A stretch of DNA of 64,000 nt, from the IMG/VR virus record IMGVR_UViG_3300028186_000155. One strand, written 5' to 3'. Position numbers and translations under genes: made by a program. This document shows, one piece after another, positions 4,777 through 23,768 of the stretch (position 1 is its first letter; each line of letters begins with the position of its first letter). Under the pieces are notes generated by a model. That model had not been told where the DNA came from. It saw only the letters and a list, made by a program, of their open reading frames with translations, and searched no databases. Source of the DNA: a virus. Taxonomy: Duplodnaviria > Caudoviricetes.

Positions 4777-4800
4777 AATGGGCACCGCCTGATGCCCATT
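4777..4800 (-). promoter_or_regulatory. intercistronic hairpin family copy H0
   Basis: AAUGGGCAUC-AGGC-GGUGCCCAUU followed by UGAAAC. Confidence 0.55.
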
Positions 4801-4805
4801 AAAAA

Positions 4806-5009
4806 CTAGCTGGGGAGAATGTCTGTGTTTTCTTTTCGGAAGGCCTTCACATGCTGCTTGAAGGTTTTATTGACACGCCGTTCCAGTTCAGCGATTTCGT
4901 TGAACTCTTCGGCACCGTTGGCAAGATCGAAACTGCTACTGACCACATCGCGGGCGCCTTGCACCGCTTGGCCATTAAAGCTCGACAGATGATTGCGGAG
5001 ATTGTTCAT
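4806..5009 (-). CDS. hypothetical protein
   Basis: GAGGAAA RBS; 67 aa. Confidence 0.7.
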   Translation of the reverse strand: MNNLRNHLSSFNGQAVQGARDVVSSSFDLANGAEEFNEIAELERRVNKTFKQHVKAFRKENTDILPS

Positions 5010-5037
5010 AATTTCCTCGGTTTTTCCTCAGTGTTTC

Positions 5038-5481
5038 TCATTTGGTGTAGGTGCCGGTTCCGTATCGGCTTTCCCACCGGGTTTTCTTGCGGTTTTCCTC
5101 GGCCTCGGCAAAACGTGTTTCTGCCTCAGCAATGCGCTTGCGTTCCAGCGCCGTGTAACAACCCCGTTCCATCCGATTGCAGTAGCGCTGTGCCTGCCTC
5201 GCGGTGCGGAACATCCGGTGAAAGCTGATGGTCAGCATATCGTCGCTGATTAGGCTTTCAATCCACACCACGCGTTCACGCAGATTGTTTATGCCGCCCT
5301 CGGCACACTCAAAGCCCCATTGCGGTTTGTTGAAATACGGCGAATAGAACGGCTTAGGTCGGTTCAGGATGTTTACAGTATCGCACCACGCCACGTTTTT
5401 GCTCGGGTCCGAGTGTGGGAACACGAATGCATGGTAGACCGTTTTGCCCTGCCGGAAATCCTTTAAGCGAAGCTTGGCCAT
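5038..5481 (-). CDS. hypothetical protein, paralog family A
   Basis: DFRQGKTVY / FRTARQAQRYCNRM..GC motifs shared with 5485 and 6559 ORFs. Confidence 0.8.
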   Translation of the reverse strand: MAKLRLKDFRQGKTVYHAFVFPHSDPSKNVAWCDTVNILNRPKPFYSPYFNKPQWGFECAEGGINNLRERVVWIESLISDDMLTISFHRMFRTARQAQRYCNRMERGCYTALERKRIAEAETRFAEAEENRKKTRWESRYGTGTYTK

Positions 5482-5484
5482 TGT

Positions 5485-5904
5485 TCAATATCCGTATTGT
5501 TGCATGCGTTTGCGCATGATTTGTTCGAAGGTGCGTTGCTCGAAATGGGTCAGCTGGTGATTGTCCATTCGCGCCTTGTAGATTTCCGCATCTTCCCGAT
5601 TGGTAAAAGTGCGGCACAGGTTGTAGGTGTTCGGGATGATACCGGCGTCACGCAATGACATGTCGGTCACGACTTTGTTTCGCTTGCCGTCCCGGCGCAC
5701 GCCTACATGGTGCGCATACCAACGGTCGTTATTGAACAGCTTGGGCAGGCTGCGCACTTCGACCGTGGAAATTCGCGTGGGTTGTAGGCGGTCAAACGAC
5801 ACGCCCACGATGAACAGAATGGCGCCCGGCACAACATCCACCATGGTGGCCCTTGGGCCTTCCATATGGCGCGGCTGCTGGTAGAAACCGACGATATTAT
5901 TCAT
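5485..5904 (-). CDS. hypothetical protein, paralog family A
   Basis: DVVPGAILF / FTNREDAEIYKARM. Confidence 0.8.
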   Translation of the reverse strand: MNNIVGFYQQPRHMEGPRATMVDVVPGAILFIVGVSFDRLQPTRISTVEVRSLPKLFNNDRWYAHHVGVRRDGKRNKVVTDMSLRDAGIIPNTYNLCRTFTNREDAEIYKARMDNHQLTHFEQRTFEQIMRKRMQQYGY

Positions 5905-6562
5905 TTACAGTTTCCCCTACTTGCAGATGGCGCGGGAATTCGCGATTGCGCTTCACGGCCTCGGGGCTGAAATGTGTGTCGTACAGCGACGGCTTGCGCT
6001 CCAGCACCATATACAGATCAGCAATGTAATGCTCCAATTGATGATCAGGATATTTCGTTTTGTTCACCATCAGCTTACCGTTGATTTGGTAGGCCTTCGA
6101 AGCGAAACGCCACGTATGCGGCAGGGTATCGCCACCGCACAGCATTGCGTTGAATCCTACGGCCATCAGCAGCGGCCTTTGACCTTTGTCTGGATCTACG
6201 GGCAAGTTGGTTTCAACGTGCGTGAATTGCATGTCGAAGCGCTTGGCGTGATCTTCCATGATCGGCAGGGCTTCAGGCGGTGCCAAGAAGATAACGCGGT
6301 CAGTGCCTTCTGCGCTTTGGTGGAATGTGCGGCCCCGGTTGTCTAAGTATTCCTGTCCGTGATCAGGGCCATCCACGTTCGGAATGAAACCGCCGATGGA
6401 AATATACAGCTTTTGTTCTGCACCTTTGAACGGAACCAGCTTTTGCAGTTCAAGGCGCATCAGCTGATATGCCAGCACGTTGGCGTCGTGCAGTGTGTCG
6501 AGGTAGAAATTCAGCAGACGCTCGCCTTCGACTTCGTGAGTCAGCAAAAATGTTTTTCTCAT
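5897..6562 (-). CDS. hypothetical protein
   Basis: coupled 221-aa ORF. Confidence 0.8.
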   Translation of the reverse strand: MRKTFLLTHEVEGERLLNFYLDTLHDANVLAYQLMRLELQKLVPFKGAEQKLYISIGGFIPNVDGPDHGQEYLDNRGRTFHQSAEGTDRVIFLAPPEALPIMEDHAKRFDMQFTHVETNLPVDPDKGQRPLLMAVGFNAMLCGGDTLPHTWRFASKAYQINGKLMVNKTKYPDHQLEHYIADLYMVLERKPSLYDTHFSPEAVKRNREFPRHLQVGETVNE

Positions 6563-7050
6563 TGCGCATTCTCCACAGCGTTTTCAACTTCGTCGTAATA
6601 GGCAGCGGCTGCCTCTTCGTATTCCTGATCGCCATACATGCTATCAGATTCGTCCATCATTTCGCGCATGGCGCGGTAACGTGCGGCGCGTTCGTGCTCA
6701 ACCTTTGTCATGCACCCGCTGGCAATGCGGTCCATATGACGCTTGGCTGCGCTGTAGGAATTGAAGCAACCGTGATTGGTTTGCGGCCACAGTTTGTCAC
6801 CCGGCGCCTTAACGCCGAATGTGGTCAAAAAGAATTTATCCGGTTCCCAATTACCCCAAATCGTATTGCGGGTCATGGTAGGAACTACCACGCCGATATC
6901 GGTGTGCATGTAGGGTTTGCCGGTCACGAAATGTTTGGTGATCCAGCCTGCCCATTGTTCGCCTGCAACCGATTTGCACGACGGGTCAAAGGCGTGCACC
7001 GTGTAAACCGTGGCACCTTGGCGCAGATCGGAAAACTTCGTTTTACTCAT
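6559..7050 (-). CDS. hypothetical protein, paralog family A
   Basis: DLRQGATVY / FNSYSAAKRHMDRI..GC. Confidence 0.8.
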   Translation of the reverse strand: MSKTKFSDLRQGATVYTVHAFDPSCKSVAGEQWAGWITKHFVTGKPYMHTDIGVVVPTMTRNTIWGNWEPDKFFLTTFGVKAPGDKLWPQTNHGCFNSYSAAKRHMDRIASGCMTKVEHERAARYRAMREMMDESDSMYGDQEYEEAAAAYYDEVENAVENAQ

Positions 7051-7484
7051 TTCAAAATCCTTTGATTGGGCAGGTGAATTATCGCGCTGCTGTTTTCTTG
7101 CAGTAGCTCTTCAATGATTAGCCATTCGTCCCGGCGTTCGCGGTCGCCTTCGCATTCACTGTGCAGCGTAAACATGTAGGTGCCGCTCGGGTAATCGGGC
7201 CGGTACACTTGGATTTTCGTGATCCAGTAATCCCATACCACCAGCCCAACCTGAAACCCGGCGAACGGCAACAGAAATTCGGTTTTCCATGTCTCGTTGG
7301 CAAAGCGTACCGAACCATTTTTGGCTACGATGCGCTGGCCGTAATAAACGATACCGTCAGGCGATTTCGCGTCGGGGTCGCGCTTGGTGTTACGCACGTC
7401 GCGGATGTGGCCCCACTCTTTCAGCTGTTTGCACTTTTCCACTTCTTTGTCGTAATCAAGCGAAAAACCCGACGTGAAATTCAT
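7047..7484 (-). CDS. protein resembling the Mu-transposase C-terminal beta-barrel (no catalytic core)
   Basis: RIVAKNGSVRFANETW..LLPFAGFQVGLVVWDYWITKIQVY pattern. Confidence 0.5.
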   Translation of the reverse strand: MNFTSGFSLDYDKEVEKCKQLKEWGHIRDVRNTKRDPDAKSPDGIVYYGQRIVAKNGSVRFANETWKTEFLLPFAGFQVGLVVWDYWITKIQVYRPDYPSGTYMFTLHSECEGDRERRDEWLIIEELLQENSSAIIHLPNQRILK

Positions 7485-7486
7485 GA

Positions 7487-8194
7487 CTAGCCCTGCGGAT
7501 AATATTGCGGATTATTTGCCATGCACTCGGCAAACCATTCGAGGATCGCGCTGTACCGCTGCGCCGTGGTTTCCACACACTGCATCAGGCGTTCACGATC
7601 TTCAGCCACTGGCGCGTAAATGCCCGGCCAGTCGAAGCCTATTTCAGAGTACCGAATGGATCGGGAAAACCCGTTCAGGTGCACAACCGCAATCCGGTCT
7701 TTTTCCACGCGGAAAGATTCGACTTCCCACAGGCAATAGACGCGGAACTGGTCGCGCTCTGATCCAAGGTGGCCATGCGAGAAACGGTCTTCATGGGAAA
7801 GCACCTGTGCGGCCCGTGCAAGCGTTACAGACTCTTTGAGTTCTGGCGGGTAGCGGTCGGGCCATACGTGCCTGTAACAGCGCACAATCGGCTCACAGCG
7901 CGTCACAGCAGCCATGATGCTTTGCACTTCACGCAGCGTCGATTCTTCGTCGTACTCTTCGACAAACGCGCCAAAGAACTTTTGCAGTTCGCTAGGCGTA
8001 CCCTCGATAAACGATGCGCCGTAGAAGTTGAACGGGCTACCGGTGAAACCCGGTGCTTGGGCCAGCAGGTCTTTACGGTATTCGTACATGTGACCAACGT
8101 TCGAACTGAAAAAGCTGTGAGGCACACCGTCTTTGATCCAACCGCCCGCCGACAAATCGACAATGATTTTAGAGGTCATTCCACAGCCTCCCAC
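7487..8194 (-). CDS. hypothetical protein
   Basis: 235-aa ORF; start may be 8179. Confidence 0.75.
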   Translation of the reverse strand: MGGCGMTSKIIVDLSAGGWIKDGVPHSFFSSNVGHMYEYRKDLLAQAPGFTGSPFNFYGASFIEGTPSELQKFFGAFVEEYDEESTLREVQSIMAAVTRCEPIVRCYRHVWPDRYPPELKESVTLARAAQVLSHEDRFSHGHLGSERDQFRVYCLWEVESFRVEKDRIAVVHLNGFSRSIRYSEIGFDWPGIYAPVAEDRERLMQCVETTAQRYSAILEWFAECMANNPQYYPQG

Positions 8195-8496
8195 ACCATC
8201 ATATAACCCGGCAGGATATTCGCATAGCTGATGGCCGTCACGAATTCCAACAGCTTGACCACCGCTTGATGCACAGCCAATTTGCTGTCATAGCGGCTGT
8301 GCTGCGTGGCCTCGAAAACTAGCTGGTCGTAAAGCTGCTTGAACAGGTCTTGAAACATGCTCATAGGCATTTCGATTTTCTGGCCGGGCTGGATTTTGAA
8401 AGCCGCGTGGCCGGTGAATTTCGAAATCAGTTCGACTTCGGACGACGACAGCAGATTGCTGAATTTTTCTTGCGGGCATTGCAGTTGAAACATCAT
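8176..8496 (-). CDS. hypothetical protein
   Basis: GAGGAAA RBS. Confidence 0.75.
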   Translation of the reverse strand: MMFQLQCPQEKFSNLLSSSEVELISKFTGHAAFKIQPGQKIEMPMSMFQDLFKQLYDQLVFEATQHSRYDSKLAVHQAVVKLLEFVTAISYANILPGYMMVWEAVE

Positions 8497-8526
8497 GGCG
8501 ATTTCCTCAGTTTTTCCGTCGGTTGC

Positions 8527-8886
8527 TCAGTATGTCGCGTGGCGGGGCAACTCTTCAACTTTCCACACCAGCGGTTTCCATGGAACGAAATTCGCCCGCT
8601 CCATTTTATCCAGCAAGATCATTACCAGCAGCCCGGCCTGATAAATCTGTATCTTGTCAGCGGTTGTAACTGTTTTGCTGTCCAGCATGACGGCAAAGCC
8701 GTCGTGGGCATCGCGCAGCCAATGCATAAAGCTGGCGGCGGTGCAGGTCATTTGCTCGCCGGAATCAAGCGTAAACGGAGTTTTCACAGGCTGGTTTTTC
8801 GGAGGCCGTGCGAACTTGCAAACCTGCGCGTATTGCTCGGCGGTCCAGATGGAAAGTACCTTGCCGTCTGCGTCTACCAATTGCAT
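8527..8886 (-). CDS. hypothetical protein
   Basis: coupled ORF. Confidence 0.7.
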   Translation of the reverse strand: MQLVDADGKVLSIWTAEQYAQVCKFARPPKNQPVKTPFTLDSGEQMTCTAASFMHWLRDAHDGFAVMLDSKTVTTADKIQIYQAGLLVMILLDKMERANFVPWKPLVWKVEELPRHATY

Positions 8887-9236
8887 TATTCAACCCCGTC
8901 AAATTGTCGTGCTGCACTCGACAGCAGTTCTTTGATTTCCGCAGCTGGGCGCGTGTAGTCCAGCGGCACGAATTCTTCGCCTTTCAACACGGTGCATTCA
9001 ACTGTGACTTTTACGCCTACTTCCATGCGCTCCAGTTCGCGCTTGTAATGCCCTTGGCCCCGGATGAATTCGGCGGCATGCCAAACGTTGCCATTGGTGG
9101 TCATACCCGAAGGCATCACCACACCGTAGCCGGGCCAGTACAGAATGTTTACAGTTCTGTCTTTGACCTGCCCAACCTTGACGGTGACGGTGCCGATCAG
9201 GTGTTCCCGCGTTTTGTCGATTGGTTTATTTGCCAT
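8886..9236 (-). CDS. hypothetical protein
   Basis: start refined to MANKPID. Confidence 0.7.
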   Translation of the reverse strand: MANKPIDKTREHLIGTVTVKVGQVKDRTVNILYWPGYGVVMPSGMTTNGNVWHAAEFIRGQGHYKRELERMEVGVKVTVECTVLKGEEFVPLDYTRPAAEIKELLSSAARQFDGVE

Positions 9237-9696
9237 CGGGAACCGCCCTGATTTCGTCAGGCGTGTAAACCACACCGAATTTTTCTTGAACGTGCAACAT
9301 TGCGCAGGCCATGATTGCCGCCTGAATCGCAGTGGCGGCCCCGGTGTGGTGTTCTGACTTCTGCACCTGCACCCGCACACTATGTTCGTCATTCGACGCA
9401 GCCACATAACGTTGGCCACCAATCGTTTCGAATTTCGTGCTGATATTCAGCAGCGATTGCACAGCCATGGTATCCACGCCAGTGCGGAATGGATCGAACG
9501 TGGTTGGGCAGCGGTTATCGAACTTCACGTGTGGCAGCGGTTTAATCGGGCGATACATACAGCCGATTTCCGTGTCGTTCTCATAACGCCATTCACCATC
9601 GGGGAAAGGCTCGTAACCCAGCATCTTTGCCAGTTGAACCGAAACCGGATTGGTCGTTTGGGTTTTGATGAACGTAAAGGAGGTGAATTTTTTCAC
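9226..9696 (-). CDS. hypothetical protein, possible phage ABA-sandwich-like domain
   Basis: LAKMLGY..FDP...DTMAV...AIQAAIM pattern. Confidence 0.55.
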   Translation of the reverse strand: MKKFTSFTFIKTQTTNPVSVQLAKMLGYEPFPDGEWRYENDTEIGCMYRPIKPLPHVKFDNRCPTTFDPFRTGVDTMAVQSLLNISTKFETIGGQRYVAASNDEHSVRVQVQKSEHHTGAATAIQAAIMACAMLHVQEKFGVVYTPDEIRAVPDGK

Positions 9697-10670
9697 GGCA
9701 TGGTTCCATATGCGGCTTTGTATTTATCGGCGGTTTCTTCGTAGGTGTATTGCATCACCAGCACAGCATAGGCCGCCGACACGCGTTGTACGTCGATGCC
9801 TTCGGGCGTCAGCGCAATATATTGCTTCGTGTGGCCCATCATTTTTTCCTGCACTAGTCCGCAATTCATCATGCGGCGCAGGCAGCGGTTTGCGTTCACC
9901 CGCGACATGCCCACATTGCCAACCAAAATGCGGCGGCACGTCACACCGTTTTTGACAAGGTGCTGATGCAGCGTTTGGTGGCGGGTGTCGGAAACCGTGG
10001 CGTTCTTGTCCAGCGCTTCCAGCAGCTTTTCGATCAAGCGTTGGTTGCTTTGGCCGAACTCCAACGCATTTGCCAATTGCGCCACTGGCGGCACGTTTGG
10101 GGCCTCTTCGCGGGCGTCTTGTCGGGCGATCCGGTCGTCAACGGTTTCGGCTGCACGCTGCACCTTGTGTTGGTGCATGGGGTCCATTTCCGCGTCAATC
10201 TCGCGCTGCAAACGATTGTTGAGCACACGCCCATAGGCGGTCAGTTTTTTGAACTGTTCACGGGTAGCGCCGCCCCCGGTGTTCCCCGCCATCAGGTGGA
10301 TGAAAACGCGCAGGATTTCGAGCGCTTCTTTGAAATCCTGCTCCTGAATTTTATTCCACTCGTTTTTGATCGTGCGGTCGCCCAGTTCCTTGCGGCCCGC
10401 TTGGCGACGTTCGGCCTGTGCCGCTTTGTGGTGGTCGGCTTCGTATTCGTAGGTTTTTACGTGTGCCACGGTTTTGTGATCGGGCTTGCCGATAACTTTC
10501 TTGCTGGTGTACAGCCACACGATGGCCCCCGAATGGGCAGCATAAACAACACTAGCGATCCGCTGGCCGGTCGCAAGGTCCAGCAGGTCTACGCCAGTGT
10601 CATCGATGCACACCATTTGATTGGGGAACATTTGGCGAATGTCACGGCGATTCATGTTTGCCATTTTCAT
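9693..10670 (-). CDS. putative DNA-binding protein with C-terminal winged HTH
   Basis: GMSRVNANRCLRRMMNCGLV..YIALTPEG. Confidence 0.6.
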   Translation of the reverse strand: MKMANMNRRDIRQMFPNQMVCIDDTGVDLLDLATGQRIASVVYAAHSGAIVWLYTSKKVIGKPDHKTVAHVKTYEYEADHHKAAQAERRQAGRKELGDRTIKNEWNKIQEQDFKEALEILRVFIHLMAGNTGGGATREQFKKLTAYGRVLNNRLQREIDAEMDPMHQHKVQRAAETVDDRIARQDAREEAPNVPPVAQLANALEFGQSNQRLIEKLLEALDKNATVSDTRHQTLHQHLVKNGVTCRRILVGNVGMSRVNANRCLRRMMNCGLVQEKMMGHTKQYIALTPEGIDVQRVSAAYAVLVMQYTYEETADKYKAAYGTMP

Positions 10671-11092: not shown

Positions 11093-11116
11093 TTTATTGC
11101 TCGCTGGTTTCACTCG

Positions 11117-11142
11117 GATACGCACCATTCTAGATGCGTATC
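11117..11142 (-). promoter_or_regulatory. intercistronic hairpin family copy H1
   Basis: GAUACGCAUC-UAGAAU-GGUGCGUAUC + UGAAAC. Confidence 0.7.
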
Positions 11143-11150
11143 GAAGTTAA

Positions 11151-11702
11151 TCAGCTTTCAGTTTTTACCATGACGATTGGCGTTGCGGGTTTCGGCACGA
11201 TACGGAAATCATGCGCGAATTGCTCACTGTGCATTTGGCCCAAGTAGAAGGCAGCGTGCAGCATGTTGCGCCCGTGGGTTTGGATATCGCCAGTGCGTGC
11301 CTCGGGCGTATCCGGGTCGAATGTGATTTCGAAACGGTAATCGGCGCCCGGATCATTCGGGTCATGGTCGTGGTTGATTTCGACCATTTCACGTACCGCA
11401 TTTTCCTGCTGTTCTGCCCAGCTATGAATGTCGTTCCAGCCCAGTTGCAGCAGCAGATAAACAGGCTCCACGAATTCAGCAGGCACCACGCTTTCTACGG
11501 CTTGACGCATGGTCAGCCGGTAGAACTGTTTGTGGTCAACCACGTTGAGGTAATAGTAGGGCTTGCCTTCCTCTTTTTCGCGCTCCCAATCGGCATCGCA
11601 TTTGGCTTGCGCTTTCTCGCTGGCTGCACGGTCGAAAGAGTCTTCGTGTGCTTTGGCAGCGGCACGGATGAATGCAGCGAATTGCAGTGCTTGAAGTTCC
11701 AT
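11151..11702 (-). CDS. hypothetical protein
   Basis: GAGGAAAAA RBS before MELQAL. Confidence 0.75.
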   Translation of the reverse strand: MELQALQFAAFIRAAAKAHEDSFDRAASEKAQAKCDADWEREKEEGKPYYYLNVVDHKQFYRLTMRQAVESVVPAEFVEPVYLLLQLGWNDIHSWAEQQENAVREMVEINHDHDPNDPGADYRFEITFDPDTPEARTGDIQTHGRNMLHAAFYLGQMHSEQFAHDFRIVPKPATPIVMVKTES

Positions 11703-11757
11703 CGTTTTTCCTCGGTTTTTCAAAATGGGTTAGGGCGCACTAGGCGCCCCACAGGTT

Positions 11758-15047: not shown

Positions 15048-15070
15048 AATTTGTACTCCGGTGTTTCATC

Positions 15071-15100
15071 CTGTTGCGCACTCAAGAGAATGCGCAGCAG
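15071..15100 (-). promoter_or_regulatory. intercistronic hairpin family copy H2
   Basis: UGCGCAUUC-UCUU-GAGUGCGCA + UGAAAC. Confidence 0.65.
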
Positions 15101-15103
15101 TGA

Positions 15104-15415
15104 TTATTCCACAGCGGGCAAAGGATCAGGTTCGCGGTCGATGATGTACCAGCTAACTTCGTTGGCGGTCCATACAGTGCCGTCTTCAGAAGCCTGCAAT
15201 TTATTGTGCATTACCTCAGTCACCCAGCACGGGCGTGGCTCAGCCCCATTGGTGCGGCTGAATTCATCGCCTTGTTGGCTGTTGATTTCGGCGGCACGTT
15301 TGTAAAACGACGCTTCGTCTTTCGCCACCAGATAGCCGTCCGGGCGGTCGCCCCAGCCGCGTTCGAATTCGGTCACGCCGCGAAAGAACGCCGGGAATTT
15401 AACTTGCTCGGTCAT
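15104..15415 (-). CDS. hypothetical phage protein (EFERGWG.RPDG motif)
   Basis: AGGAG RBS. Confidence 0.8.
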   Translation of the reverse strand: MTEQVKFPAFFRGVTEFERGWGDRPDGYLVAKDEASFYKRAAEINSQQGDEFSRTNGAEPRPCWVTEVMHNKLQASEDGTVWTANEVSWYIIDREPDPLPAVE

Positions 15416-15424
15416 AATGTCTCC

Positions 15425-15748
15425 TTAATTTGGCCGGGCTTTGTTTTTTAGGTACTGCGCCATTTGCTGCGGATCGTTGTCGAGCAAAGCAGCGGTTTCA
15501 TCAAATTCCGCGTCCGACACGATAATGCCGCCTTCGGCTTCGAATTCAGCGCGGTTGCAAACGCCGTATTCATTACCACGGAATTTCAACAGGAACAGGC
15601 CGTGCGGCTTCAGCATGTCACGCAGCTTGGCGGCCACGTCTTCGACGGTTTCACCGCTAAGCATCGCGTCGTCAAAAGCGATGATGTATTTCCCCTGCTG
15701 GTCGTGCAGGTCTACCAGTTGATGCAGCAAATCTTCGCGGTCGATCAT
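15425..15748 (-). CDS. hypothetical protein
   Basis: GGAG RBS. Confidence 0.75.
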   Translation of the reverse strand: MIDREDLLHQLVDLHDQQGKYIIAFDDAMLSGETVEDVAAKLRDMLKPHGLFLLKFRGNEYGVCNRAEFEAEGGIIVSDAEFDETAALLDNDPQQMAQYLKNKARPN

Positions 15749-15752
15749 GTCG

Positions 15753-16088
15753 TTACTCCACTTTTACCCATGGGCGCAAAACGTAGCGCTCTTTCAAATA
15801 TTTCAGCCAGTCTTTAGCCGTGTCGCCACTGGCCAGAACCTCGCCGTTTTTCTCCAGCTTGAAACCAATGGTCGTGGTTCCAAGTTTGTGCGTGAATGAG
15901 GCGTGCCCAAACACTTCGGAATTTTGATACAGCAGGAAAACGACGGTCGTTGCATCCTGCTCGGTGTCGTAGTGGCTTTCGAGTGCCGCACCGTGCAATT
16001 TCGATACGTCGATAAAGTGGTTGCGCACCACCTGCGTCAGGTTGGCTATGCGTGATGCACGGGGGTGTTGCCGGTCGTGAATTTCCAT
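15753..16088 (-). CDS. hypothetical protein
   Basis: start refined to MEIHDR. Confidence 0.7.
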   Translation of the reverse strand: MEIHDRQHPRASRIANLTQVVRNHFIDVSKLHGAALESHYDTEQDATTVVFLLYQNSEVFGHASFTHKLGTTTIGFKLEKNGEVLASGDTAKDWLKYLKERYVLRPWVKVE

Positions 16089-16672
16089 CACTTCGCCTTT
16101 TTCTTTTTCCGTTTGCGGTTGCCGTGGCAATCCACAAGGCCCGCCAGTTGATCGTCGGCGTCCCGTGTATCGATGTTGAACGCTTCGAGCATTGCGCGGT
16201 TCATCACCTCGGGATAACCATCGACGTTTATTTCCATCGTCGGCTCTTCCGAGAACAGCGCAGATGCCACGATGGCTGAAACCTGATCCATCAGGAAATC
16301 AATCATGCCGTCGTTTTCGTCGTAGAGGACAGTGGCGCGTTGCTCTTCGTTCAATTCCGCGAACGTCGCCGGGAACTCAGGATAAAAGAATGGCGTATAG
16401 TTTTTCGCCACGTGATCTTGAGCCTGTTCAGGCGTCCATTTACTTTCGTAGAACGGCTGCCATGTGTTGTTGTGCAGCACCTGCACCGTGACGCCCACCG
16501 ATGCCACGATATCCACCGAAATGCGGACGTGTGGCTGGCCACCTTTCAGCAGGATAACGGCTAGGTCGCCATCACGTTTTACTTTGGTGCCGCACTCGCT
16601 GCGCAGGCCGCCGATGCAGGCCTCTGGAAATTTGTAAGGTTTCATTTGTTGTTCCTCGGGTGTCAGTTTCAT
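16088..16672 (-). CDS. hypothetical protein with basic C-terminal tail
   Basis: 194 aa; start may be MKPYK. Confidence 0.75.
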   Translation of the reverse strand: MKLTPEEQQMKPYKFPEACIGGLRSECGTKVKRDGDLAVILLKGGQPHVRISVDIVASVGVTVQVLHNNTWQPFYESKWTPEQAQDHVAKNYTPFFYPEFPATFAELNEEQRATVLYDENDGMIDFLMDQVSAIVASALFSEEPTMEINVDGYPEVMNRAMLEAFNIDTRDADDQLAGLVDCHGNRKRKKKKAK

Positions 16673-16677
16673 TGTGC

Positions 16678-16700
16678 CTGCGCACCAGCTAGATGCGCAG
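16678..16700 (-). promoter_or_regulatory. intercistronic hairpin family copy H3
   Basis: CUGCGCAUC-UAGCU-GGUGCGCAG + UGAAAC. Confidence 0.7.
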
Positions 16701-16713
16701 AACCAATTAGCTG

Positions 16714-16989
16714 TCAGTCTTCGACCGTTTCATCCGGGTGCAACAAGCCCTGCGATTTCAGAGCCTTTTTGAATTCGAGGAAGCCGATGCCATTCACGCA
16801 CTTGTCGCCGTGCACCATGGTGACGACGAAATAATCGCCTTCGTCCACGGTGAAAGTGCAGACCAGCTGATTTTTACCAGCGCGGCGCTCTTCTACGCTG
16901 TATAGTTGCACGTTCCCGAAGCTGTTGATCAGTGCCACGTGATTTACGTCAGCGAAAAGCGATTTAACGGTGTTTGTCATTTTCCACAT
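16714..16989 (-). CDS. hypothetical protein
   Basis: GAGGA RBS. Confidence 0.75.
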   Translation of the reverse strand: MWKMTNTVKSLFADVNHVALINSFGNVQLYSVEERRAGKNQLVCTFTVDEGDYFVVTMVHGDKCVNGIGFLEFKKALKSQGLLHPDETVED

Positions 16990-17025
16990 TTTTGAATCCT
17001 CGTTGGGTCGTCAGTTTTACCGTGC

Positions 17026-17049
17026 CTGCACACTCCTTAGAATGTGCAG
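17026..17049 (-). promoter_or_regulatory. intercistronic hairpin family copy H4
   Basis: CUGCACAUUC-UAAG-GAGUGUGCAG (compensatory change relative to H3). Confidence 0.7.
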
Positions 17050-17062
17050 AACCGATTAGCTG

Positions 17063-17491
17063 TTATTCGGAAATTACGCGCATGCCGTAATGGTCGCTGT
17101 TGCCTTTGCGGTAGAACTCAACGACGCGGCCATGCATGCGGATTTTCTGGCCGGGTTTCAGCAGCACCATTTCCCAGCGTGCGCGATTGTGGCCGACGAT
17201 GGAAGATGCGCAATTGTTCACCCAGTACAGTTCGTGCTTGCGCTCGGTGCATTGCGCTTCAGCCGCTACCGGGTCTTCGTTGTACTCCATCGCGTAATAG
17301 GCGCTGCAATTCGGCGCGACTTCAGGATACAGCGTGCCGTGGCGCATGGATTCTTTAGCCACGCAGAAACGCAGGCCGGGCTGGCCGATACCGTCACCCA
17401 TCGAACCGAAAGGCAGGTCGAGGATTTCTTGGTTCAGGTCTACAACGTCGAAAGCTGGAACGGATTTTACGAGGGTTTTGGTAGCGGTCAT
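17063..17491 (-). CDS. hypothetical protein
   Basis: AGGAG RBS. Confidence 0.8.
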   Translation of the reverse strand: MTATKTLVKSVPAFDVVDLNQEILDLPFGSMGDGIGQPGLRFCVAKESMRHGTLYPEVAPNCSAYYAMEYNEDPVAAEAQCTERKHELYWVNNCASSIVGHNRARWEMVLLKPGQKIRMHGRVVEFYRKGNSDHYGMRVISE

Positions 17492-17542
17492 TTTGTGGCT
17501 CCTGATAAGGATCGTTTTGGTTTGGTACAGCTTCGTTTCATA

Positions 17543-17564
17543 TGCGCACCGTTCTAGATGCGCA
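17543..17564 (-). promoter_or_regulatory. intercistronic hairpin family copy H5
   Basis: UGCGCAUC-UAGAAC-GGUGCGCA + UGAAAC. Confidence 0.7.
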
Positions 17565-17572
17565 GAAAAAAC

Positions 17573-17722
17573 TCACTGGTCAATCTTTGTGGCACCGCGT
17601 GGCTTCGGGGCGTTTTTCTTGCGGCGCCATTCAACGTAAACGAAGGCGCCCATGATTGCGAGAACCGAGGCCAGCACGGCGATTTCTTTAACGTGGCCGA
17701 TGGTAGTAGTTGCGTATTCCAT
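17573..17722 (-). CDS. 49-aa single-TM protein (MEYATTTIGHVKEIAVLASVLAIMGAFVYVEWRRKK...)
   Basis: hand-translated; AAGGA RBS; below ORF-track cutoff. Confidence 0.65.
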   Translation of the reverse strand: MEYATTTIGHVKEIAVLASVLAIMGAFVYVEWRRKKNAPKPRGATKIDQ

Positions 17723-17734
17723 TGTAGCGGTTCC

Positions 17735-18326: not shown

Positions 18327-18330
18327 TTTT

Positions 18331-18417: not shown

Positions 18418-18448
18418 CACCTTTCGTTTGGGCCAGTGGCTATGCCTC

Positions 18449-18478
18449 TGTACGCGCATACGCGCACGCATGCGTATA
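18449..18478. repeat. 30-bp perfect alternating purine-pyrimidine tract
   Basis: tgtacgcgcatacgcgcacgcatgcgtata. Confidence 0.85.
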
Positions 18479-18510
18479 AAGAAGCAGTGGCCAGCCCACC
18501 GGGCGCCAGA

Positions 18511-18550
18511 AACGCAAAAGGCCCCGCCAGCGCGAACTGGGGAGCCTTTA
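18511..18550 (-). terminator. intrinsic terminator
   Basis: AAGGCUCC..GGGGCCUUUU downstream of the paralog B cluster. Confidence 0.7.
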
Positions 18551-18553
18551 GGG

Positions 18554-18976
18554 TCAATCGGGATATGTGATGGTCCAGCGCCCAGCCTTGGAATCGAATT
18601 CAACCACACCCAGTCTCGGGGCAACGGTCGGTTTCGGCTCCTTACGTGGTTTCGGTATGTCCCACTCGTTGCGAATCTTCCCGTACTGGATTCGCGTGGC
18701 ATCGGGCTTAGCGCGGCTGCTTTCCAAAACGCGCACGTAATCTTTCAGGCGCATGTTTTCTGCCTTGAGGGAATACGCGTTCTGCTTGAATCCGCGCAGT
18801 GTCTCTTGTTGCTTGTGGTTGGCAATCTCCAGCTGTGAAACCCGGACGCTGTATTTGTGGCCCTCCTTTTCCGCTTCCAGAAATTTGCGGCGCCACACAA
18901 ACGACGACCACACCATAATGCCCAGCGCCACCAGCAGAATAATTACCGGCCATTGCCCATTCATGTTATGTGCCAC
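18554..18976 (-). CDS. TM + coiled-coil protein, paralog family B
   Basis: WSSFVWRRKF..GVVEFDSKAGRWTIT. Confidence 0.8.
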   Translation of the reverse strand: MAHNMNGQWPVIILLVALGIMVWSSFVWRRKFLEAEKEGHKYSVRVSQLEIANHKQQETLRGFKQNAYSLKAENMRLKDYVRVLESSRAKPDATRIQYGKIRNEWDIPKPRKEPKPTVAPRLGVVEFDSKAGRWTITYPD

Positions 18977-19338
18977 CTGCCAGACTTGATATCAAATGTG
19001 ACCATTCCCAAATGCGGCCCATCGCAAGGTTGATCAGGCACGCCATAAATACCTGCCTTGTGATCTAGCCGGTCATCGGTCTTTACGCGGCTGCCCTCTA
19101 GCGTGCGTACATATTGACGTAGCAAAATGTTTTGCGCTTTGAATTCCCTGTTACTCTGTTTGAATTCGTCCACTTCATTTTTGAGCCTGTGCCAATTGCC
19201 CCGAACGTGAGCAAGATCAGTGCGCAATCCATCAGCCTCATTAGATACGCGCATAAACTTGCGGCGCCAAACAAAAGAAGACCACATCATAACGCCGAGC
19301 ATCACCAGCGTAAGAATTAACGGCCAATCAGCATTCAT
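18961..19338 (-). CDS. TM + coiled-coil protein, paralog family B
   Basis: WSSFVWRRKF..GMVTFDIKSGRWHIT. Confidence 0.8.
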   Translation of the reverse strand: MNADWPLILTLVMLGVMMWSSFVWRRKFMRVSNEADGLRTDLAHVRGNWHRLKNEVDEFKQSNREFKAQNILLRQYVRTLEGSRVKTDDRLDHKAGIYGVPDQPCDGPHLGMVTFDIKSGRWHIT

Positions 19339-19607
19339 GTTACGCGCCAGCCTCCAGTCTTTTTGCACAGTTCGAAAGTAGCGCCCACCTGTTCCTGTTC
19401 CTTGGGCGTATCGTACTTGGAGCGGAATTTGTGCAGGTGACGCAATTGCAGGTTTTCTACTTCCAGCAGCATTGCTTTCGCTTCGGCTGCCTGCACACGG
19501 CGGCGCATGGCGGTTATGCGTTCGTATTGTTTCACCGACAGCATAACCATGAACATGCAGGCGCCAATTAAAAACACGGTGCCGATTTGTGACCCGGTAA
19601 TGGTCAT
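19335..19607 (-). CDS. TM + coiled-coil protein, paralog family B (divergent)
   Basis: GGAGG RBS; GATFELCKKTGGWRVT. Confidence 0.75.
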   Translation of the reverse strand: MTITGSQIGTVFLIGACMFMVMLSVKQYERITAMRRRVQAAEAKAMLLEVENLQLRHLHKFRSKYDTPKEQEQVGATFELCKKTGGWRVT

Positions 19608-19615
19608 GGTGCCTC

Positions 19616-20008
19616 CTACGAATGGCAGTCGATTTTTACGCGGGCGTTGGTGGCTGCTGCGGCCTGTTCCATCGCCGGGCGCATATGGTCGGCATTCTTG
19701 GCACACGCAGGCTCGGCGTATTCTTTGCCGTAGAACTGCGCCAGTGCGAAACCGTCGCACTGTTCGTTCTCCGTGCCCTGCGCCGCGCACACTTTGAAAT
19801 TCAGTGTGGCCAGCACGGGCAACTTACTTTCGGGCATGCCGCTTTTGCAGCTAAAGGTTCCTGTGCGCTTTTCTTTAAGCGCAGATTCCTGCATGCCGTC
19901 ACGATTGTAATTGCACATGAAAGCAGCTTGCGCCGTGAAGAAATCTGCGACACGCACTTCCTTGCACGGTTGACCAGCCAGACAAATATTCAGCATCAGC
20001 GAAAGCAT
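19616..20008 (-). CDS. Cys-rich protein with two internal repeats (YebW/DUF1482-like)
   Basis: LNICL..PC...FF..C repeated as LNFKVC..C..FY..C. Confidence 0.6.
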   Translation of the reverse strand: MLSLMLNICLAGQPCKEVRVADFFTAQAAFMCNYNRDGMQESALKEKRTGTFSCKSGMPESKLPVLATLNFKVCAAQGTENEQCDGFALAQFYGKEYAEPACAKNADHMRPAMEQAAAATNARVKIDCHS

Positions 20009-20026
20009 TTTATGTTCCTTAGACCA

Positions 20027-20599
20027 TTAGGCCAGTGTGATTACTTTTTTGTTGTCGCTGCCACGTGTGTCGTTCAGCCATTTGACTGCGCGCTTCACGT
20101 AGCGTTTGAAGTCACCGACGTTTTCACAGTCGATATAGTCGTGGTCGTTTTCCGGGGTGGCGATGCGCTGAAGTTTGAAACGGCTTTTCGGATAACGCAC
20201 TTTCCATTGGAACGACAACGGCAGGTCGTAGGCATCAGGTTCCATACCGCGACCATAACTGAAGTCGATTTCGTGGCCTGCGTTGGTTTTAAACGTGAAG
20301 CACCAGCCATATTGCACCGGCCCGAAAACGCCTTCATGTTCCACACTGGAAACGATGGCGCCCAGTTGTTCGGCTGCGGCTTTTAGTCGCGCAATGATTT
20401 TTTCTTGGCGTTTGAATTCTGCGTCGATACGGACAATCAGTTCGGCCAAGGAAATTTCCCGATGCTGCGCCGCCTGCAACATGCGCAAATGGTTATGTGC
20501 CGCTTGGAAAACTTCTTCGGCGTTGGCCAGCATTTGATCGTGTTGCGCGTCCCATGCGAAGCCGGTGGCAGGGATTTCAATTTTCTTTGCGCGTGCCAT
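20027..20599 (-). CDS. hypothetical protein
   Basis: GAGGA RBS; N-terminal coiled coil. Confidence 0.8.
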   Translation of the reverse strand: MARAKKIEIPATGFAWDAQHDQMLANAEEVFQAAHNHLRMLQAAQHREISLAELIVRIDAEFKRQEKIIARLKAAAEQLGAIVSSVEHEGVFGPVQYGWCFTFKTNAGHEIDFSYGRGMEPDAYDLPLSFQWKVRYPKSRFKLQRIATPENDHDYIDCENVGDFKRYVKRAVKWLNDTRGSDNKKVITLA

Positions 20600-20601
20600 G
20601 T

Positions 20602-21126
20602 TTATTCCTCTTCCGCTGGTTCGTAGCGGTAAATGGTAATCAGGTGGTGAGTGACGCCGTTGCGCACTTCGGTTTTCTTACCGTAGCCACCGCTGTACAT
20701 CCAGCCGTCAGCAACACGATTTGGCGGCAGCTTCGGTTCCTCGTCCCAAGCTTTTTTCGGCTGCGCCCTGATCCAAATTTCTTTGGTCACTTTACCCAAG
20801 CCGAAATATTCCGCGCTCTGTTCGAATTCCCACTGGGCGCGAATTTCTGCGCGGTTGCCCATTGCAGCCATCAGGCCACCGGCAGGAATGGTGATGGTGC
20901 CGAACGAACGCGACGACCGATCACAGATAACACGAATTTCGAGATTGAAATCTATGTCGCTGTTGTGGTCAGGGCGGTGCAGCGCGTAATCAATTTCACG
21001 CCGGTTAATATTGATGCGCACCGGGTAAAGCTTTTTGATTTCGGCAGGCACCGTGATTTCATTTTCAGGTTTACGCATACAATCCTCACAGGTAAGCGTA
21101 AGCGTCGAGTTCCGGCAATTTTTCAT
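20602..21126 (-). CDS. hypothetical protein
   Basis: start may be MRKPE (~21078). Confidence 0.7.
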   Translation of the reverse strand: MKNCRNSTLTLTCEDCMRKPENEITVPAEIKKLYPVRININRREIDYALHRPDHNSDIDFNLEIRVICDRSSRSFGTITIPAGGLMAAMGNRAEIRAQWEFEQSAEYFGLGKVTKEIWIRAQPKKAWDEEPKLPPNRVADGWMYSGGYGKKTEVRNGVTHHLITIYRYEPAEEE

Positions 21127-21709
21127 CGCGCTTGAATCGGCGCATGGTCCACAAAGCGGTTTGAATTCGCCCCTCGTCGTGCAGCAAATTCACCGGGTAG
21201 ATTTCCAGCGGTGGCCGGTAGGTGCGGCGCAGCGCGTCCATTGGATCGCGCACAGCAGGCCCCGAATAAACCACCATCACTTCTTTGCTCGCCATGATGA
21301 ACCGGATAACGAAACCGTGAGTCATCATCGCCAGCGAGAAATCATCAAACGTTTTACCTTCGCACGGGAAACCATCCACGTTCGGATAATCGAACCGGGG
21401 TTTCTCTGTATTTACAGTTTCGACCTCAACCACGGTTTCAATTTCACCCGCCGTTTCAGTTTCACGCATACGGGCCAACGCCCGCTCTTCAGCAGTGAAC
21501 GGGATATCCCGCACAGGCGTTTGATTTGCAGCGTTCCAGAAACCGCCCGGCTCTTCGTCGGTGGTGATTTCCGAAATATCCAGATCGGGCAAGGCGCGTT
21601 CAACGCTATCAGCCTTTTCCAGTTTGGTAATGCGCCACAAAGCATAAACGCACAGCACCACCAAAATGCCCAGCACCGCAAAGAACAATTTGATATGCAG
21701 CGTATCCAT
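21086..21709 (-). CDS. N-terminally anchored membrane protein
   Basis: single TM helix; GGGAG RBS. Confidence 0.75.
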   Translation of the reverse strand: MDTLHIKLFFAVLGILVVLCVYALWRITKLEKADSVERALPDLDISEITTDEEPGGFWNAANQTPVRDIPFTAEERALARMRETETAGEIETVVEVETVNTEKPRFDYPNVDGFPCEGKTFDDFSLAMMTHGFVIRFIMASKEVMVVYSGPAVRDPMDALRRTYRPPLEIYPVNLLHDEGRIQTALWTMRRFKRDEKLPELDAYAYL

Positions 21710-21740
21710 TTGCTACTCCCATCGACTTTTTCAAGGTCGA

Positions 21741-21778
21741 AAAATAACCCCCTTTGAACTGGTCGCCGGGGGTTTATT
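21741..21778 (-). terminator. intrinsic terminator
   Basis: AACCCCC..GGGGGUUAUUUUU after the 508-aa gene. Confidence 0.65.
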
Positions 21779-21796
21779 GGTTTGGGTACTGCCGAG

Positions 21797-23323
21797 TTAC
21801 AGCGCGTTGAACTCGGCAATGGTCATGGTGTTGGCGTAGGTCGGTTGGCCGTCGTTCATGTAGATCAGATCGAGAGGCAAACCGGCGTGACCTTCGGCGG
21901 CAGATACTGCGGTCGAAACACCGTCACGTTTCACGATACGCAGCACCGAAACGATTTTCGATTTTGCGCCCTTCGTTACGCGTACCCCCAGTTCCTTGAT
22001 TTCGTCGCGGGTAGGCTTAACGGTGGTGCCTTTCTTTGCAGTGCCCTTGCCTTCAGCGGCTGCGAAATTCAGGCGTGGAGCCTTGCCGTTTACTTCCTGT
22101 GCCGCTTGCTTGGCTGGGGCCTTGCGGGTGTTCTCGGCAGACTTTGCACCGGCTTTAGCGTTGGTCGAAGCTACACCGGCCTTTTCCATGGCGCCGGAAA
22201 TCAGGGCCAAATCAGAAACGCGGAACTTGCCTTTCACTTCGATGATTGCGGCCAGTGGTACACGCTTGCCGCTGGTGGTGATTACCACGCGTTCGTCGGT
22301 TTCTTTGACGCGCATGATTTTCTCAACCTGTTCCAGCTTGCGGCCATCCATGAAACCTTTGGCGCGCAATTCGGTGGTGCTGATTGCCTTGTGGGCAGGT
22401 GCTGCATTTACTACGGCCTTGGTGGTCGGGGCCTTTGGCGCAGGCTGCGAAGTTTCTTTGTGCTGTGCAGCCGATTTTTCGAGGCCGTGGTTTTTGACCA
22501 TGCGACCTTTGCGAGTGGTGGAAATCTTGGTGGTGAGGTGCTTCCAAGGCTGTGCGGATTCCTCGAATGCGCGCACGTCTTTCAGCGACATATCATCGTA
22601 GGCCCACACTGCTTTGTCCTTCATGGTGACAAACAGCGTTTTGGTGTTGCGGTCGTACTGGGCGCCAGTCAACTGGGTGCTGGTTTTGACTTTCAGGTCG
22701 CGGATTGGGAACACGCGGCCTTCGGTGGCGCTGGCAGCGGCCTTACCGGCGTTTTTGGTGCTGGCCGGGGTTTCGGTCGGGAAATCTTCCTGCTCGACTG
22801 CTGGGGCCTTCGCTGGGGCTTTGGAACCACCTTTTACTGGGGCAGCAGGGGCAGCGGTGTATTTGTCCACCAGATCCAGCTTAACGCGCAGGTTGCCGCG
22901 ATTGTTGAATTCCAGATCGGCAGCGGCGATTTTGCTGCCCTTGTCGGTAACGACAGTGCGCACGCCAGCGATGTTCGAAATACGCAGCACCTTTTCTTTG
23001 CTGCGACCGATCATCAGTTCACCAGCTTCGCGGATGGCGCCGGATTTCAGTTCTACCGCGTCAGCTTTCGGCGCTGGGGCAGCTTTGCCAGCCGGGGCCT
23101 TGGTTTCGGTCGCTTTCGGCGCTGGGGTGCCAGCAGCGGCTTGCTTGGCTTTGAAATCCTTCAGCCAGCTGTTCAGTTCGCGATAGGTAACGCCGTTACC
23201 GATATCGTCACCGAGTTTGTACAGCGGGGCGCCGGTTTCTTTTTTGTGTTGCTTGTTACGCTCGATCAGCGATTCAGCAGCAGCAACCAGCAGGGCAGTT
23301 TGAGTGTGGATTACGTTGGTCAT
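21797..23323 (-). CDS. Lys/Ala-rich multidomain nucleic-acid-binding protein with KTSC domain
   Basis: STQLTGAQYDRNTKTLFVTMKDKAVWAYDDM..F.ES; three related basic modules; KAPA linkers. Confidence 0.75.
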   Translation of the reverse strand: MTNVIHTQTALLVAAAESLIERNKQHKKETGAPLYKLGDDIGNGVTYRELNSWLKDFKAKQAAAGTPAPKATETKAPAGKAAPAPKADAVELKSGAIREAGELMIGRSKEKVLRISNIAGVRTVVTDKGSKIAAADLEFNNRGNLRVKLDLVDKYTAAPAAPVKGGSKAPAKAPAVEQEDFPTETPASTKNAGKAAASATEGRVFPIRDLKVKTSTQLTGAQYDRNTKTLFVTMKDKAVWAYDDMSLKDVRAFEESAQPWKHLTTKISTTRKGRMVKNHGLEKSAAQHKETSQPAPKAPTTKAVVNAAPAHKAISTTELRAKGFMDGRKLEQVEKIMRVKETDERVVITTSGKRVPLAAIIEVKGKFRVSDLALISGAMEKAGVASTNAKAGAKSAENTRKAPAKQAAQEVNGKAPRLNFAAAEGKGTAKKGTTVKPTRDEIKELGVRVTKGAKSKIVSVLRIVKRDGVSTAVSAAEGHAGLPLDLIYMNDGQPTYANTMTIAEFNAL

Positions 23324-23328
23324 GATCT

Positions 23329-23415
23329 AACTTCCTATAAAGTGTGAGTGTCAAACTTAGTCGGCGTGGTTGCCGATTGGATTTCAGAATGCCATTAGAG
23401 GCGCGTGCGTGTCAA
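23329..23415 (-). promoter_or_regulatory. sigma70 promoter P3 with conserved leader
   Basis: TTGACA-18-CATTCT (TGn), hairpin, GACACTCACACTTTATAGGAAGTT. Confidence 0.7.
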
Positions 23416-23702
23416 CGGCTTTTGCGTCGGGTTTCGTTTAGGACCGGGCGAATCTGCAATGCCGGGTCGTTGTTGTACAGGATTCCGTCCGCACCAATGT
23501 AGGTTCCGGGCGCAACGTGCCAAACCTGCATGTGCGGTTCCAGCTTCCTGCGCGGGCCGCCCTCAACTTTCGAAAGCGCTTCCTTGATGGTTTCGCCCCG
23601 GCCCCACTCCCCGAAATCCACGACGATGAATTGTGTTAGCGCCGGGTCGAGGTTGGCGGGGGTTTCGATTTCCGTTTTCGAGACGGCAGCTTTGCGTGCC
23701 AT
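23412..23702 (-). CDS. hypothetical protein
   Basis: GGAG RBS. Confidence 0.75.
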   Translation of the reverse strand: MARKAAVSKTEIETPANLDPALTQFIVVDFGEWGRGETIKEALSKVEGGPRRKLEPHMQVWHVAPGTYIGADGILYNNDPALQIRPVLNETRRKSR

Positions 23703-23744
23703 GGTTCGTACTCCATTTGGGTTTGTGGTTTCAGTGCAGCCAGC

Positions 23745-23768
23745 TTGCGCACCATTCTAGATGCGCAA
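23745..23768 (-). promoter_or_regulatory. intercistronic hairpin family copy H6
   Basis: UUGCGCAUC-UAGAAU-GGUGCGCAA + UGAAAC. Confidence 0.7.

Follow-up and report, generated by a model that had tools for sequence, protein, structure and literature searches.

Seven intercistronic hairpins of a Lu11-like jumbo phage resemble T7 early RNase III sites

The early sites of phage T7 are multi-copy intercistronic hairpins in a polycistronic early transcript made by the host RNA polymerase (RNAP). Each combines an upper stem of 10–11 base pairs (bp), an internal loop and an irregular lower stem, has a variable apical loop, and spans about two helical turns. RNase III processing between genes is a known phage strategy, not previously noted in the Lu11-like group of jumbo phages, for which it is predicted here as the most likely function of seven hairpin elements. 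These lie in a 64,000-nucleotide (nt) stretch of the virus record IMGVR_UViG_3300028186_000155 (hereafter ‘the window’) and share the features of the T7 sites listed above.

The substrate requirements of Escherichia coli RNase III have been described. The helix from the tetraloop to the cut must be at least 11 bp long. The distal box consists of two pairs, U-A and then U·G; replacing this U·G by A-U costs more than 30-fold in reactivity, and replacing it by G·U 50-fold. The proximal box consists of four pairs: G-C at the first position, A-U or U-A at the second (where C-G and G-C block binding), A-U at the third, and A-U or U-A at the fourth (where G-C and C-G suppress catalysis with binding still possible, as in the minimal substrate uR1.1). 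The sequence and position of the loop are irrelevant, a 4-bp insert above the distal box leaving the cut unchanged, and the enzyme also regulates as a binding protein (PMC1540722 for all of these). An ideal substrate has two helical turns, or 22 bp (PMC3867540), and T7 site R1.1 is cut once (PMC4858673).

Structure, conservation and strand specificity of the seven elements

The virus record is complete (314,224 bp, terminal repeats present), and the window is the reverse strand of its positions 90118–154117. The nearest named relatives are Pseudomonas phages HRDY3 (about 70–85% identity, patchy) and Lu11, and membership of the Lu11-like jumbo phages was confirmed. The lineage differs from that of T7: a 314-kb myovirus-type jumbo phage with a presumed Pseudomonas host, versus a 40-kb podovirus of E. 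coli. A literature search returned nothing on HRDY3 and nothing on RNase III sites in Pseudomonas phages.

An initial annotation, made from the sequence alone, had placed seven hairpins between a stop codon and the next start. All seven were present, on the minus (coding) strand, each in a short stop-to-start gap between consecutive minus-strand open reading frames (ORFs). They lie in an early-type block of ∼80 genes, nearly all without annotation and many coding for small proteins; the genes flanking the elements are mutually unrelated (a GNAT acetyltransferase, a DksA/TraR zinc finger, ORFans). A strict scan of the 314,224-bp genome (6-bp stem plus U...G plus complement) found the family at these seven sites only. 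A covariance model built from the seven copies likewise confined its genome matches to them, all in the sense strand (E 1e-12 to 5e-9), the next match having an E of 0.6. With the same model, HRDY3, Lu11 and an uncultured relative of 308 kb (G002) yielded five to seven copies apiece, which without exception lay on the coding strand and formed a cluster in the colinear block of small ORFs; conservation of the family in related phages, which had been named as a test, was thus observed in the corresponding block. A search of Rfam with window positions 4000–31000 (E ≤ 5) gave no relevant match.

Minimum free energy folding with flanks gave the same three-helix fold in every copy, with z-scores of -2.6 to -5.4 against shuffled sequences. 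The element measures ∼55 nt (about 50–60) and not the 22–30 nt first assigned, since two more helices and internal loops lie below the hairpin. An outer helix of 3 bp (P1; CAG/CUG, GUG/CAC or CUG/CAG) is followed by an internal loop with 3–5 nt on the 5′ side and mostly GAAA on the 3′ side, by a helix of 3–5 bp (P2), by a small 2×2 or 1×1 loop, and by an upper stem of 10–11 bp (P3) of the form UGCGCAU-loop-GUGCGCA. The stop codon of the upstream gene is always at or within P1 or the 5′ internal loop, and the element ends 11–25 nt upstream of the start codon. The seven elements, all on the minus strand and with window coordinates, are:

s23745, 23725..23785: P1 CAG/CUG; upper stem UUUGCGCAUC...GGUGCGCAAG; U·G pair 23761/23752; covariance-model E 3.5e-10; orthologues present in HRDY3, G002, L002, L007 and Lu11.
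s17543, 17527..17582: P1 CAG/CUG (compensatory CGG/CCG in orthologues); P2 UUUUU/GAAA(C); U·G pair 17558/17549; E 3.2e-10.
s17026, 17011..17066: P1 CAG/CUG; loop CUA/AAAA; P2 AUCG/CGGU; 2×2 loop GU/CA; 11-bp upper stem with tetraloop top CAUUC-UAAG-GAGUG, positions 1–5 being the same as in T7 R1.1; U·G pair 17042/17033; E 1.2e-11.
s16678, 16663..16717: P1 CAG/CUG; loop CUA/GAAA; P2 AUUG/CAAU; 2×2 loop GU/CA; 10-bp upper stem; U·G pair 16693/16685; the top covariance-model match (E 1.4e-12).
s15071, 15060..15114: P1 GUG/CAC; tetraloop top CAUUC-UCUU-GAGUG; U·G pair 15090/15081; E 4.7e-9; the G-C at position 4 of the proximal box may act as a catalytic antideterminant; the downstream gene codes for the DksA/TraR-type zinc finger.
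s11117, 11104..11158: P1 CUG/CAG, overlapping the UGA stop of the upstream gene; P2 ACUU/GAGU; stem GAUACGCAUC/GGUGCGUAUC; U·G pair 11134/11125; E 1.1e-10; the downstream gene codes for the GNAT acetyltransferase.
s4777, 4763..4816: continuous 15–16-bp helix UUUUUAAUGGGCAUC/GGUGCCCAUUGGAAA; U·G pair 4792/4785; E 3.3e-10; the top, GGGCAUC...GGUGCCC, is similar to that of T7 R0.3.

The covariation reported for the stems was seen again (UGCGCA/UGCGCA, UACGCA/UGCGUA, UGCACA/UGUGCA, UGGGCA/UGCCCA), as was the U·G pair next to the stem (seven of seven copies in the window). Among 32 distinct copies, including those of the relatives, 91.5% of the pairing cells were paired (73.3% when shuffled) and 14 of the 17 pairs showed compensatory double changes, in an alignment that was itself fitted to the covariance model; model-free minimum free energy folds gave the same architecture in every copy, plus one extra class. 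Shifting the partner column by one reduced pairing to about 30%. Since the model matches the sense strand only and the stems covary, the suggestion that the U·G pair marks an RNA structure of the minus-strand transcript is upheld. The lower half of the element was examined separately in 26 copies: cognate flanks had a mean of -5.6 kcal/mol and non-cognate ones -4.5 kcal/mol (p = 7e-4).

Two sequence motifs that had been attributed to the family need correction, the first of them because the lower stem was misread. The UGAAAC following six copies does occur literally, although it is no separate downstream motif: in five copies it is made up of the final nt of P2, the GAAA internal loop and the first nt of P1, and in the other two of the seven it is not homologous (after P1 in s23745, whose orthologues read GGU-UGUA-CUG at this position; the P2 strand itself in s17543). 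Loops of the UAGAAY type, said to be frequent, are found in three of the seven copies, the remainder having tetraloop-type tops. Including the relatives, the apical loops are UAGAAY, assorted tetraloops (4–8 nt overall) or inserts of 10–21 nt, the rest of the element being unchanged.

Comparison with RNase III recognition rules and with the T7 sites

The T7 early intergenic gaps were folded in the same way. Their upper stems were:

R0.3: AAGGGUAUC-GCAA-GGUGCCCUU; top GGGUAUC-GCAA-GGUGCCC.
R1: CAGGUCAUC-UGCG-GGUGGCCUG; top CAUC-UGCG-GGUG.
R1.1: AAGGUCAUUC-GCAA-GAGUGGCCUU, also given as GGUCAUUC-GCAA-GAGUGGCC; core CAUUC-GCAA-GAGUG.

From the loop downwards, the pairs of R1.1 are C-G, U-A, U·G, A-U and C-G, which is identical to the tetraloop-type copies described here (CAUUC-NNNN-GAGUG), while the remaining copies (CAUC...GGUG) match R1 and R0.3. 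The elements and these T7 sites thus have in common a loop-proximal core of C-G, U-A or C-G, U·G, A-U and C-G and, near the cut, G-C followed by A/U pairs. They differ in the middle of the stem (UGCGCA here, GGUC/GGCC in T7) and in the lower half, which is shorter here (4 bp + 3 bp) and split by the conserved A-rich loop (GAAA), whereas T7 has UAUGAU. No kinase link like that of T7 is known for the elements, whose cleavage is predicted only.

When 31 copies were placed in register, with the U·G pair as position 3 from the loop, the pairs were distributed as follows:

Position 2 (distal box 1): U-A 15, C-G 16.
Position 3 (distal box 2): U·G 31 of 31.
Position 4: A-U 31 of 31.
Position 5: C-G 31 of 31.
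Position 8 (proximal box 1): G-C 26, A-U 5.
Position 9 (proximal box 2): U-A 26, A-U 5; never G-C or C-G.
Position 10 (proximal box 3): A-U 12 (the commonest), U-A 3, C-G 5, mismatches 8.
Position 11 (proximal box 4): weak pairs or mismatches 23, G-C or C-G 8.
Positions 11–13: weak pairs and mismatches, in the cut region.

The distal box therefore agrees with the published one, the C-G found above U·G in about half of the copies being present in T7 R1 and R0.3 too, and the first two positions of the proximal box agree as well. Positions 1–9 are always paired and 10–11 mostly so, with the lower half adding ∼11 positions, which provides the required helix length. The variability of the loops, with inserts of up to 21 nt, is what irrelevance of the loop would allow, and most copies have 2×2 or 1×1 loops or mismatches at positions 10–13, as T7 sites do; interruptions of this kind at the target site limit cleavage to a single strand in signals of the R1.1 class. 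The option of T7-like mRNA processing sites, one of those offered in the initial annotation, is in this way well supported.

The minimal substrate uR1.1 releases a 28-nt product (PMC1540722), which places the 3′-side cut after the 13th nt 3′ of the loop, 10 nt past the G of the U·G pair. In the window, the cuts (all on the minus strand) are predicted at:

s23745: between 23742 and 23741, giving the next gene a 39-nt leader.
s17543: between 17539 and 17538, 47-nt leader.
s17026: between 17023 and 17022, 33-nt leader.
s16678: between 16675 and 16674, bond GGUGCGCAGGCA^CAAUGAAAC, 29-nt leader.
s15071: between 15071 and 15070, 23-nt leader.
s11117: between 11115 and 11114, 22-nt leader.
s4777: between 4775 and 4774, 26-nt leader.

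Beyond the cut, P2 (4), the loop (4) and P1 (3) add up to 11 nt, so that the whole element spans the two-turn, 22-bp ideal substrate. Applied to T7, the same register puts the cuts after 890, 1468, 3138, 5887 and 6448, exactly the coordinates reportedly given for R0.3, R0.5, R1, R1.1 and R1.3 by Dunn and Studier in 1983.

We conclude that the seven elements are probably processing signals of the T7 type, recognized by the host RNase III within long polycistronic early-type transcripts. The phage encodes a sigma70-family factor, and no RNase III or double-stranded RNA-binding domain protein was found in its genome; it therefore relies on the core RNAP and, to cut double-stranded RNA, the RNase III of the host. 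According to the mechanism proposed, the host RNAP would make long early-type transcripts from sigma70-like phage promoters, and in the mRNA each element would form an irregular hairpin roughly two helical turns long. Its upper stem would present the distal box (U-A or C-G, then U·G) and the proximal box (G-C, then U-A or A-U), and the ∼11 further positions of interrupted helix (P2, the A-rich loop and P1) would complete the two-turn substrate. RNase III would then cut the 3′ strand only, at the small internal loop below the upper stem. When a single strand is cut at an internal loop, the upstream RNA keeps a protective hairpin at its 3′ end (PMC3867540, PMC1540722). The upstream message would accordingly end in a protective hairpin, the downstream one would begin 22–47 nt before the start codon with its Shine-Dalgarno sequence intact, and neighbouring genes would be uncoupled in stability and expression. 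We infer that the Pseudomonas RNase III would cleave a single strand, at the bond predicted here, and that the effect would be stabilizing.

Several observations weigh against this reading. Positions 3 and 4 of the proximal box fit loosely: 8 of the 31 copies, s15071 and s11117 among them, have G-C or C-G at position 4. The lower half, besides being short and interrupted, shows cognate pairing that is not significant for the seven copies of the window alone (p = 0.085). The wobble is not universal in T7, since R0.5 and R1.3, two of the five early sites, lack U·G at this position; further, the T7 cut coordinates used here as validation are those reportedly given by Dunn and Studier, and RNase III sites are not among the features shown in the T7 GenBank records. 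The rules are those of the E. coli enzyme, while the presumed host is a Pseudomonas, whose RNase III is uncharacterized on such substrates, and the authors of the rules point out that distal-box preferences may vary between species (PMC1540722). A literature search for transcript-end or biochemical work on phages of the Lu11 group found none. Finally, the stem between the boxes (UGCGCA) is conserved beyond what the known rules demand, which leaves room for another recognition factor.

Recurrence of the core in unrelated phages and alternative explanations

An exact-pattern scan (TGCGCATTC-N4-GAGTGCGCA) over 2.9 million viral contigs found 13 matching stretches, 11 of them outside the Lu11-like jumbo genomes (Lu11, L005) and from at least eight unrelated lineages. 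The unrelated contigs measure 6–47 kb and include complete 40–47-kb genomes, in which one or two copies lie close to an end. Their cores are intergenic, share the strand of the adjacent small ORFs and have lower stems of 5–9 bp; no flanking protein is shared with the genome analysed here or among the contigs. When the wobble in the pattern was changed to C-G, to U-A or to a reversed G·U, each of the three scans over the same contigs gave zero matches. A pattern with C-G above the U·G found 11 stretches, of which four are apparently genuine intergenic sites and six are one homologous stretch within a long ORF. In the bacterial genomes, the CUAGAAY core gave one core-only match, in a metagenome-assembled genome of Flavobacteriaceae. 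The recurrence of the core with U·G only suggests selection by a conserved host factor and agrees with the reported need for this pair, although RNase III is not thereby proven to be the factor.

The homologous stretch just mentioned belongs to an ORF of ∼555 aa in 15–85-kb contigs (L056, L057 and L062–L065; about 3139–4806 in L056) that contains TGCGCATCC-TGAC-GGGTGCGCA without a lower stem; this in-gene hairpin is probably coincidental. Another unrelated contig, of 22 kb (L040, IMGVR_UViG_3300020577_002448), carries two identical U·G cores (1964–1985 and 2419–2440) above a lower stem of CUCCA/UGGAG; they occupy successive gaps in a row of small ORFs on the same strand and form a small family of their own. 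A search for a T7-type RNAP in the small core-sharing phages gave no match, its control being silent.

As an alternative to cleavage, the elements might bind RNase III, or merely fold, without being cut, and serve as insulators, as barriers to 3′–5′ exonucleases in the manner of repetitive extragenic palindromic (REP) sequences, or as RNase III-binding regulators of the adjacent ribosome binding site. The eight copies with G-C or C-G at position 4, a change that uncouples binding from cleavage in uR1.1, would suit such a role, as would the known regulation by binding in E. coli (PMC1540722) and the short distance (11–25 nt) to the start codons. However, most copies are weak or mismatched at positions 10–13, like cleaved T7 sites, an exonuclease barrier needs neither an invariant U·G nor the proximal-box pattern, and wobble-less variants were absent from the 2.9 million viral contigs under all three control patterns; we therefore hold this explanation to be improbable. 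The REP-type stabilizer hairpins of enterobacteria and pseudomonads are similar in being imperfect palindromes located after stops inside operons, where they can protect upstream mRNA. In contrast to them, the elements described here have no GTAG motif and no RAYT/Y1 transposase, are confined to one phage block, and possess the specific U·G and proximal-box pattern and the two-turn geometry.

There is a similarly small chance that the likeness to RNase III substrates is coincidental and that another factor, such as a phage RNA-binding protein or nuclease or another host ribonuclease, recognizes GCAU/GUGC plus the wobble. The conservation of positions 4–9 (A-U, C-G, G-C, C-G, G-C, U-A) beyond the RNase III rules, the identical UGCGCA stem in unrelated phages, and the abundance of unannotated small proteins in the block are what such a factor would lead one to expect. 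Against it, the core-sharing phages have no flanking proteins in common, which favours a host factor; the irrelevant, insert-tolerant apical loop is usual with RNase III but not with hairpin-loop binders; and the geometry yields all five T7 cut sites (at the coordinates reported for them). A generic protein-binding RNA motif, also put forward in the initial annotation, is required by none of the observations.

Elements acting at the DNA level, as hairpin-type or other phage promoters, as terminators or as sites of cassette exchange by recombination, have a very low probability. In their favour is the mosaic organization of the block, which is colinear among the relatives. HRDY3 loses homology one base past s17026 and regains it immediately beyond s15071, and G002 regains it where s15071 begins; a swapped gene block is therefore bordered by copies of the element. 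The genes between them (window 15048–17062) are replaced by unrelated ones in HRDY3 (L028:19380-21081) and in G002 (L031), and HRDY3 has an extra small gene between the s15071 orthologue and the DksA-like gene. The swap, a single case, may reflect recombination between repeats, which might be a by-product of the elements and not their function. A comparable situation is that of the promoter-early stem-loop (PeSL) cassettes of T4-type phages, reportedly described by Arbiol et al. in 2010. These, too, are short structured intergenic elements repeated among small, fast-changing early ORFs, with copies bordering a block of genes that is not the same in all relatives; unlike them, the elements described here contain no promoter, and their conserved features are RNA-level determinants of RNase III. 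The Lu11 record also holds a joined ‘putative middle/late promoter’ feature across the region, but this is one span of 172 kb (107991–280538) and uninformative on these sites. A role in DNA is further opposed by T·G becoming C·A on the other strand, with the model matching the sense strand only, by stems that covary rather than preserve one binding sequence, by the lack of a Y1/HUH transposase partner, and by the absence of a sigma70-like hexamer pair and of a U-tract in the presence of a separate promoter family. As first noted, the elements are not intrinsic terminators, which consist of a G+C-rich hairpin with a U-tract directly behind it: none of the seven has a T-run, and a terminator scan listed none of them.

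That promoter family has the form TTGAC(C/A/T)-N17-TAnnnT, followed by a conserved leader of ∼60 nt. Its promoter–leader cassettes are found on the minus strand of the window at:

31369–31341 (genome position 122749).
29871–29843 (genome position 124247).
∼24628 (genome position ∼129490).
18417–18389 (genome position 135701).
12340–12312 (genome position 141778).

The cassettes probably define transcription units, and the seven elements lie inside the units of this family. No sigma70 hexamer pair was found at the elements themselves, and the cassettes, of sigma70 type, supply the promoters; with the elements located inside operons, the idea of hairpin-type promoters offered in the initial annotation is not supported. 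Promoters of the sigma70 type have -35 and -10 hexamers at a fixed spacing; those of the N4 type form, on the template strand, a 5–7-bp stem closed by a 3-nt loop. Promoters of the sigma70 type and hairpin promoters of the N4 type were rejected for want of a hexamer pair and in view of the sense-strand-specific structure and loops of 4–8 nt. Searches for a T7-type RNAP (control silent) and for an Rpb2-type RNAP gave no match.

Other candidates were also rejected: a mimic of CRISPR repeats (type I-C repeats end in ATTGAAAC), given the variable spacing to TGAAAC (2–12 nt) and the lack of homology of this motif in some copies; a hammerhead, since the elements have GAAA after the stem but lack CUGANGA; a kink-turn, there being no tandem G·A on both strands; REP/RAYT or IS200-type single-stranded DNA hairpins, there being no Y1 transposase; and part of a duplicated gene, the flanking proteins being unrelated.

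Other features of the gene block and significance of the elements

The leader of the promoter cassettes, which recur five or six times in the block and have paralogous counterparts in HRDY3 and G002, carries a small GGGCA...UGCCCGC hairpin and a conserved ACACUCACGCAAUUAGGGAAGUUU directly before the start codon. A second family of intergenic hairpins was observed upstream of the seven elements (window 27060–30535, minus strand; for example 29962–29944, ∼29110, ∼28300 and ∼27090). In it AGCCCGC-CCUGU-GCGGGCU precedes UUUGUC, behind which stands either AGUAGUAAAC or AGUAGGAAAC; in contrast to the RNase III-type elements, its members look like intrinsic terminators that are leaky and have a conserved motif downstream. 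Also within the block, a gene coding for 508 aa (21797–23323) is directly followed by a strong intrinsic terminator (AACCCCCGG...CAAAGGGGGUUAUUUUU; window ∼21710–21796, minus strand). In addition, a double Shine-Dalgarno-like leader, UGAGGAAAA(A)CCGAGGAAAU, was found directly before starts in three short gaps on the minus strand (5010–5037, 8497–8526 and just beyond position 1).

A further, tentative proposal, which we regard as unlikely though less so than the alternatives discussed above, is that the UGCGCAU/GUGCGCA wobble hairpin is a portable, near-optimal processing module acquired, or converged on, by many unrelated phages. If so, RNase III would read a much stricter code (distal box plus stem), and one conserved in more proteobacterial hosts, than its presently assumed weak specificity suggests, and the dispersed repeat might promote the swapping of early-gene cassettes among jumbo phages. 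Should cleavage be confirmed, the compact elements could be used as operon-splitting parts in Pseudomonas engineering. For the Lu11 group, the elements would provide a concrete model of how long transcripts are divided, and its seven predicted cut positions are precise enough to be verified to the nucleotide.

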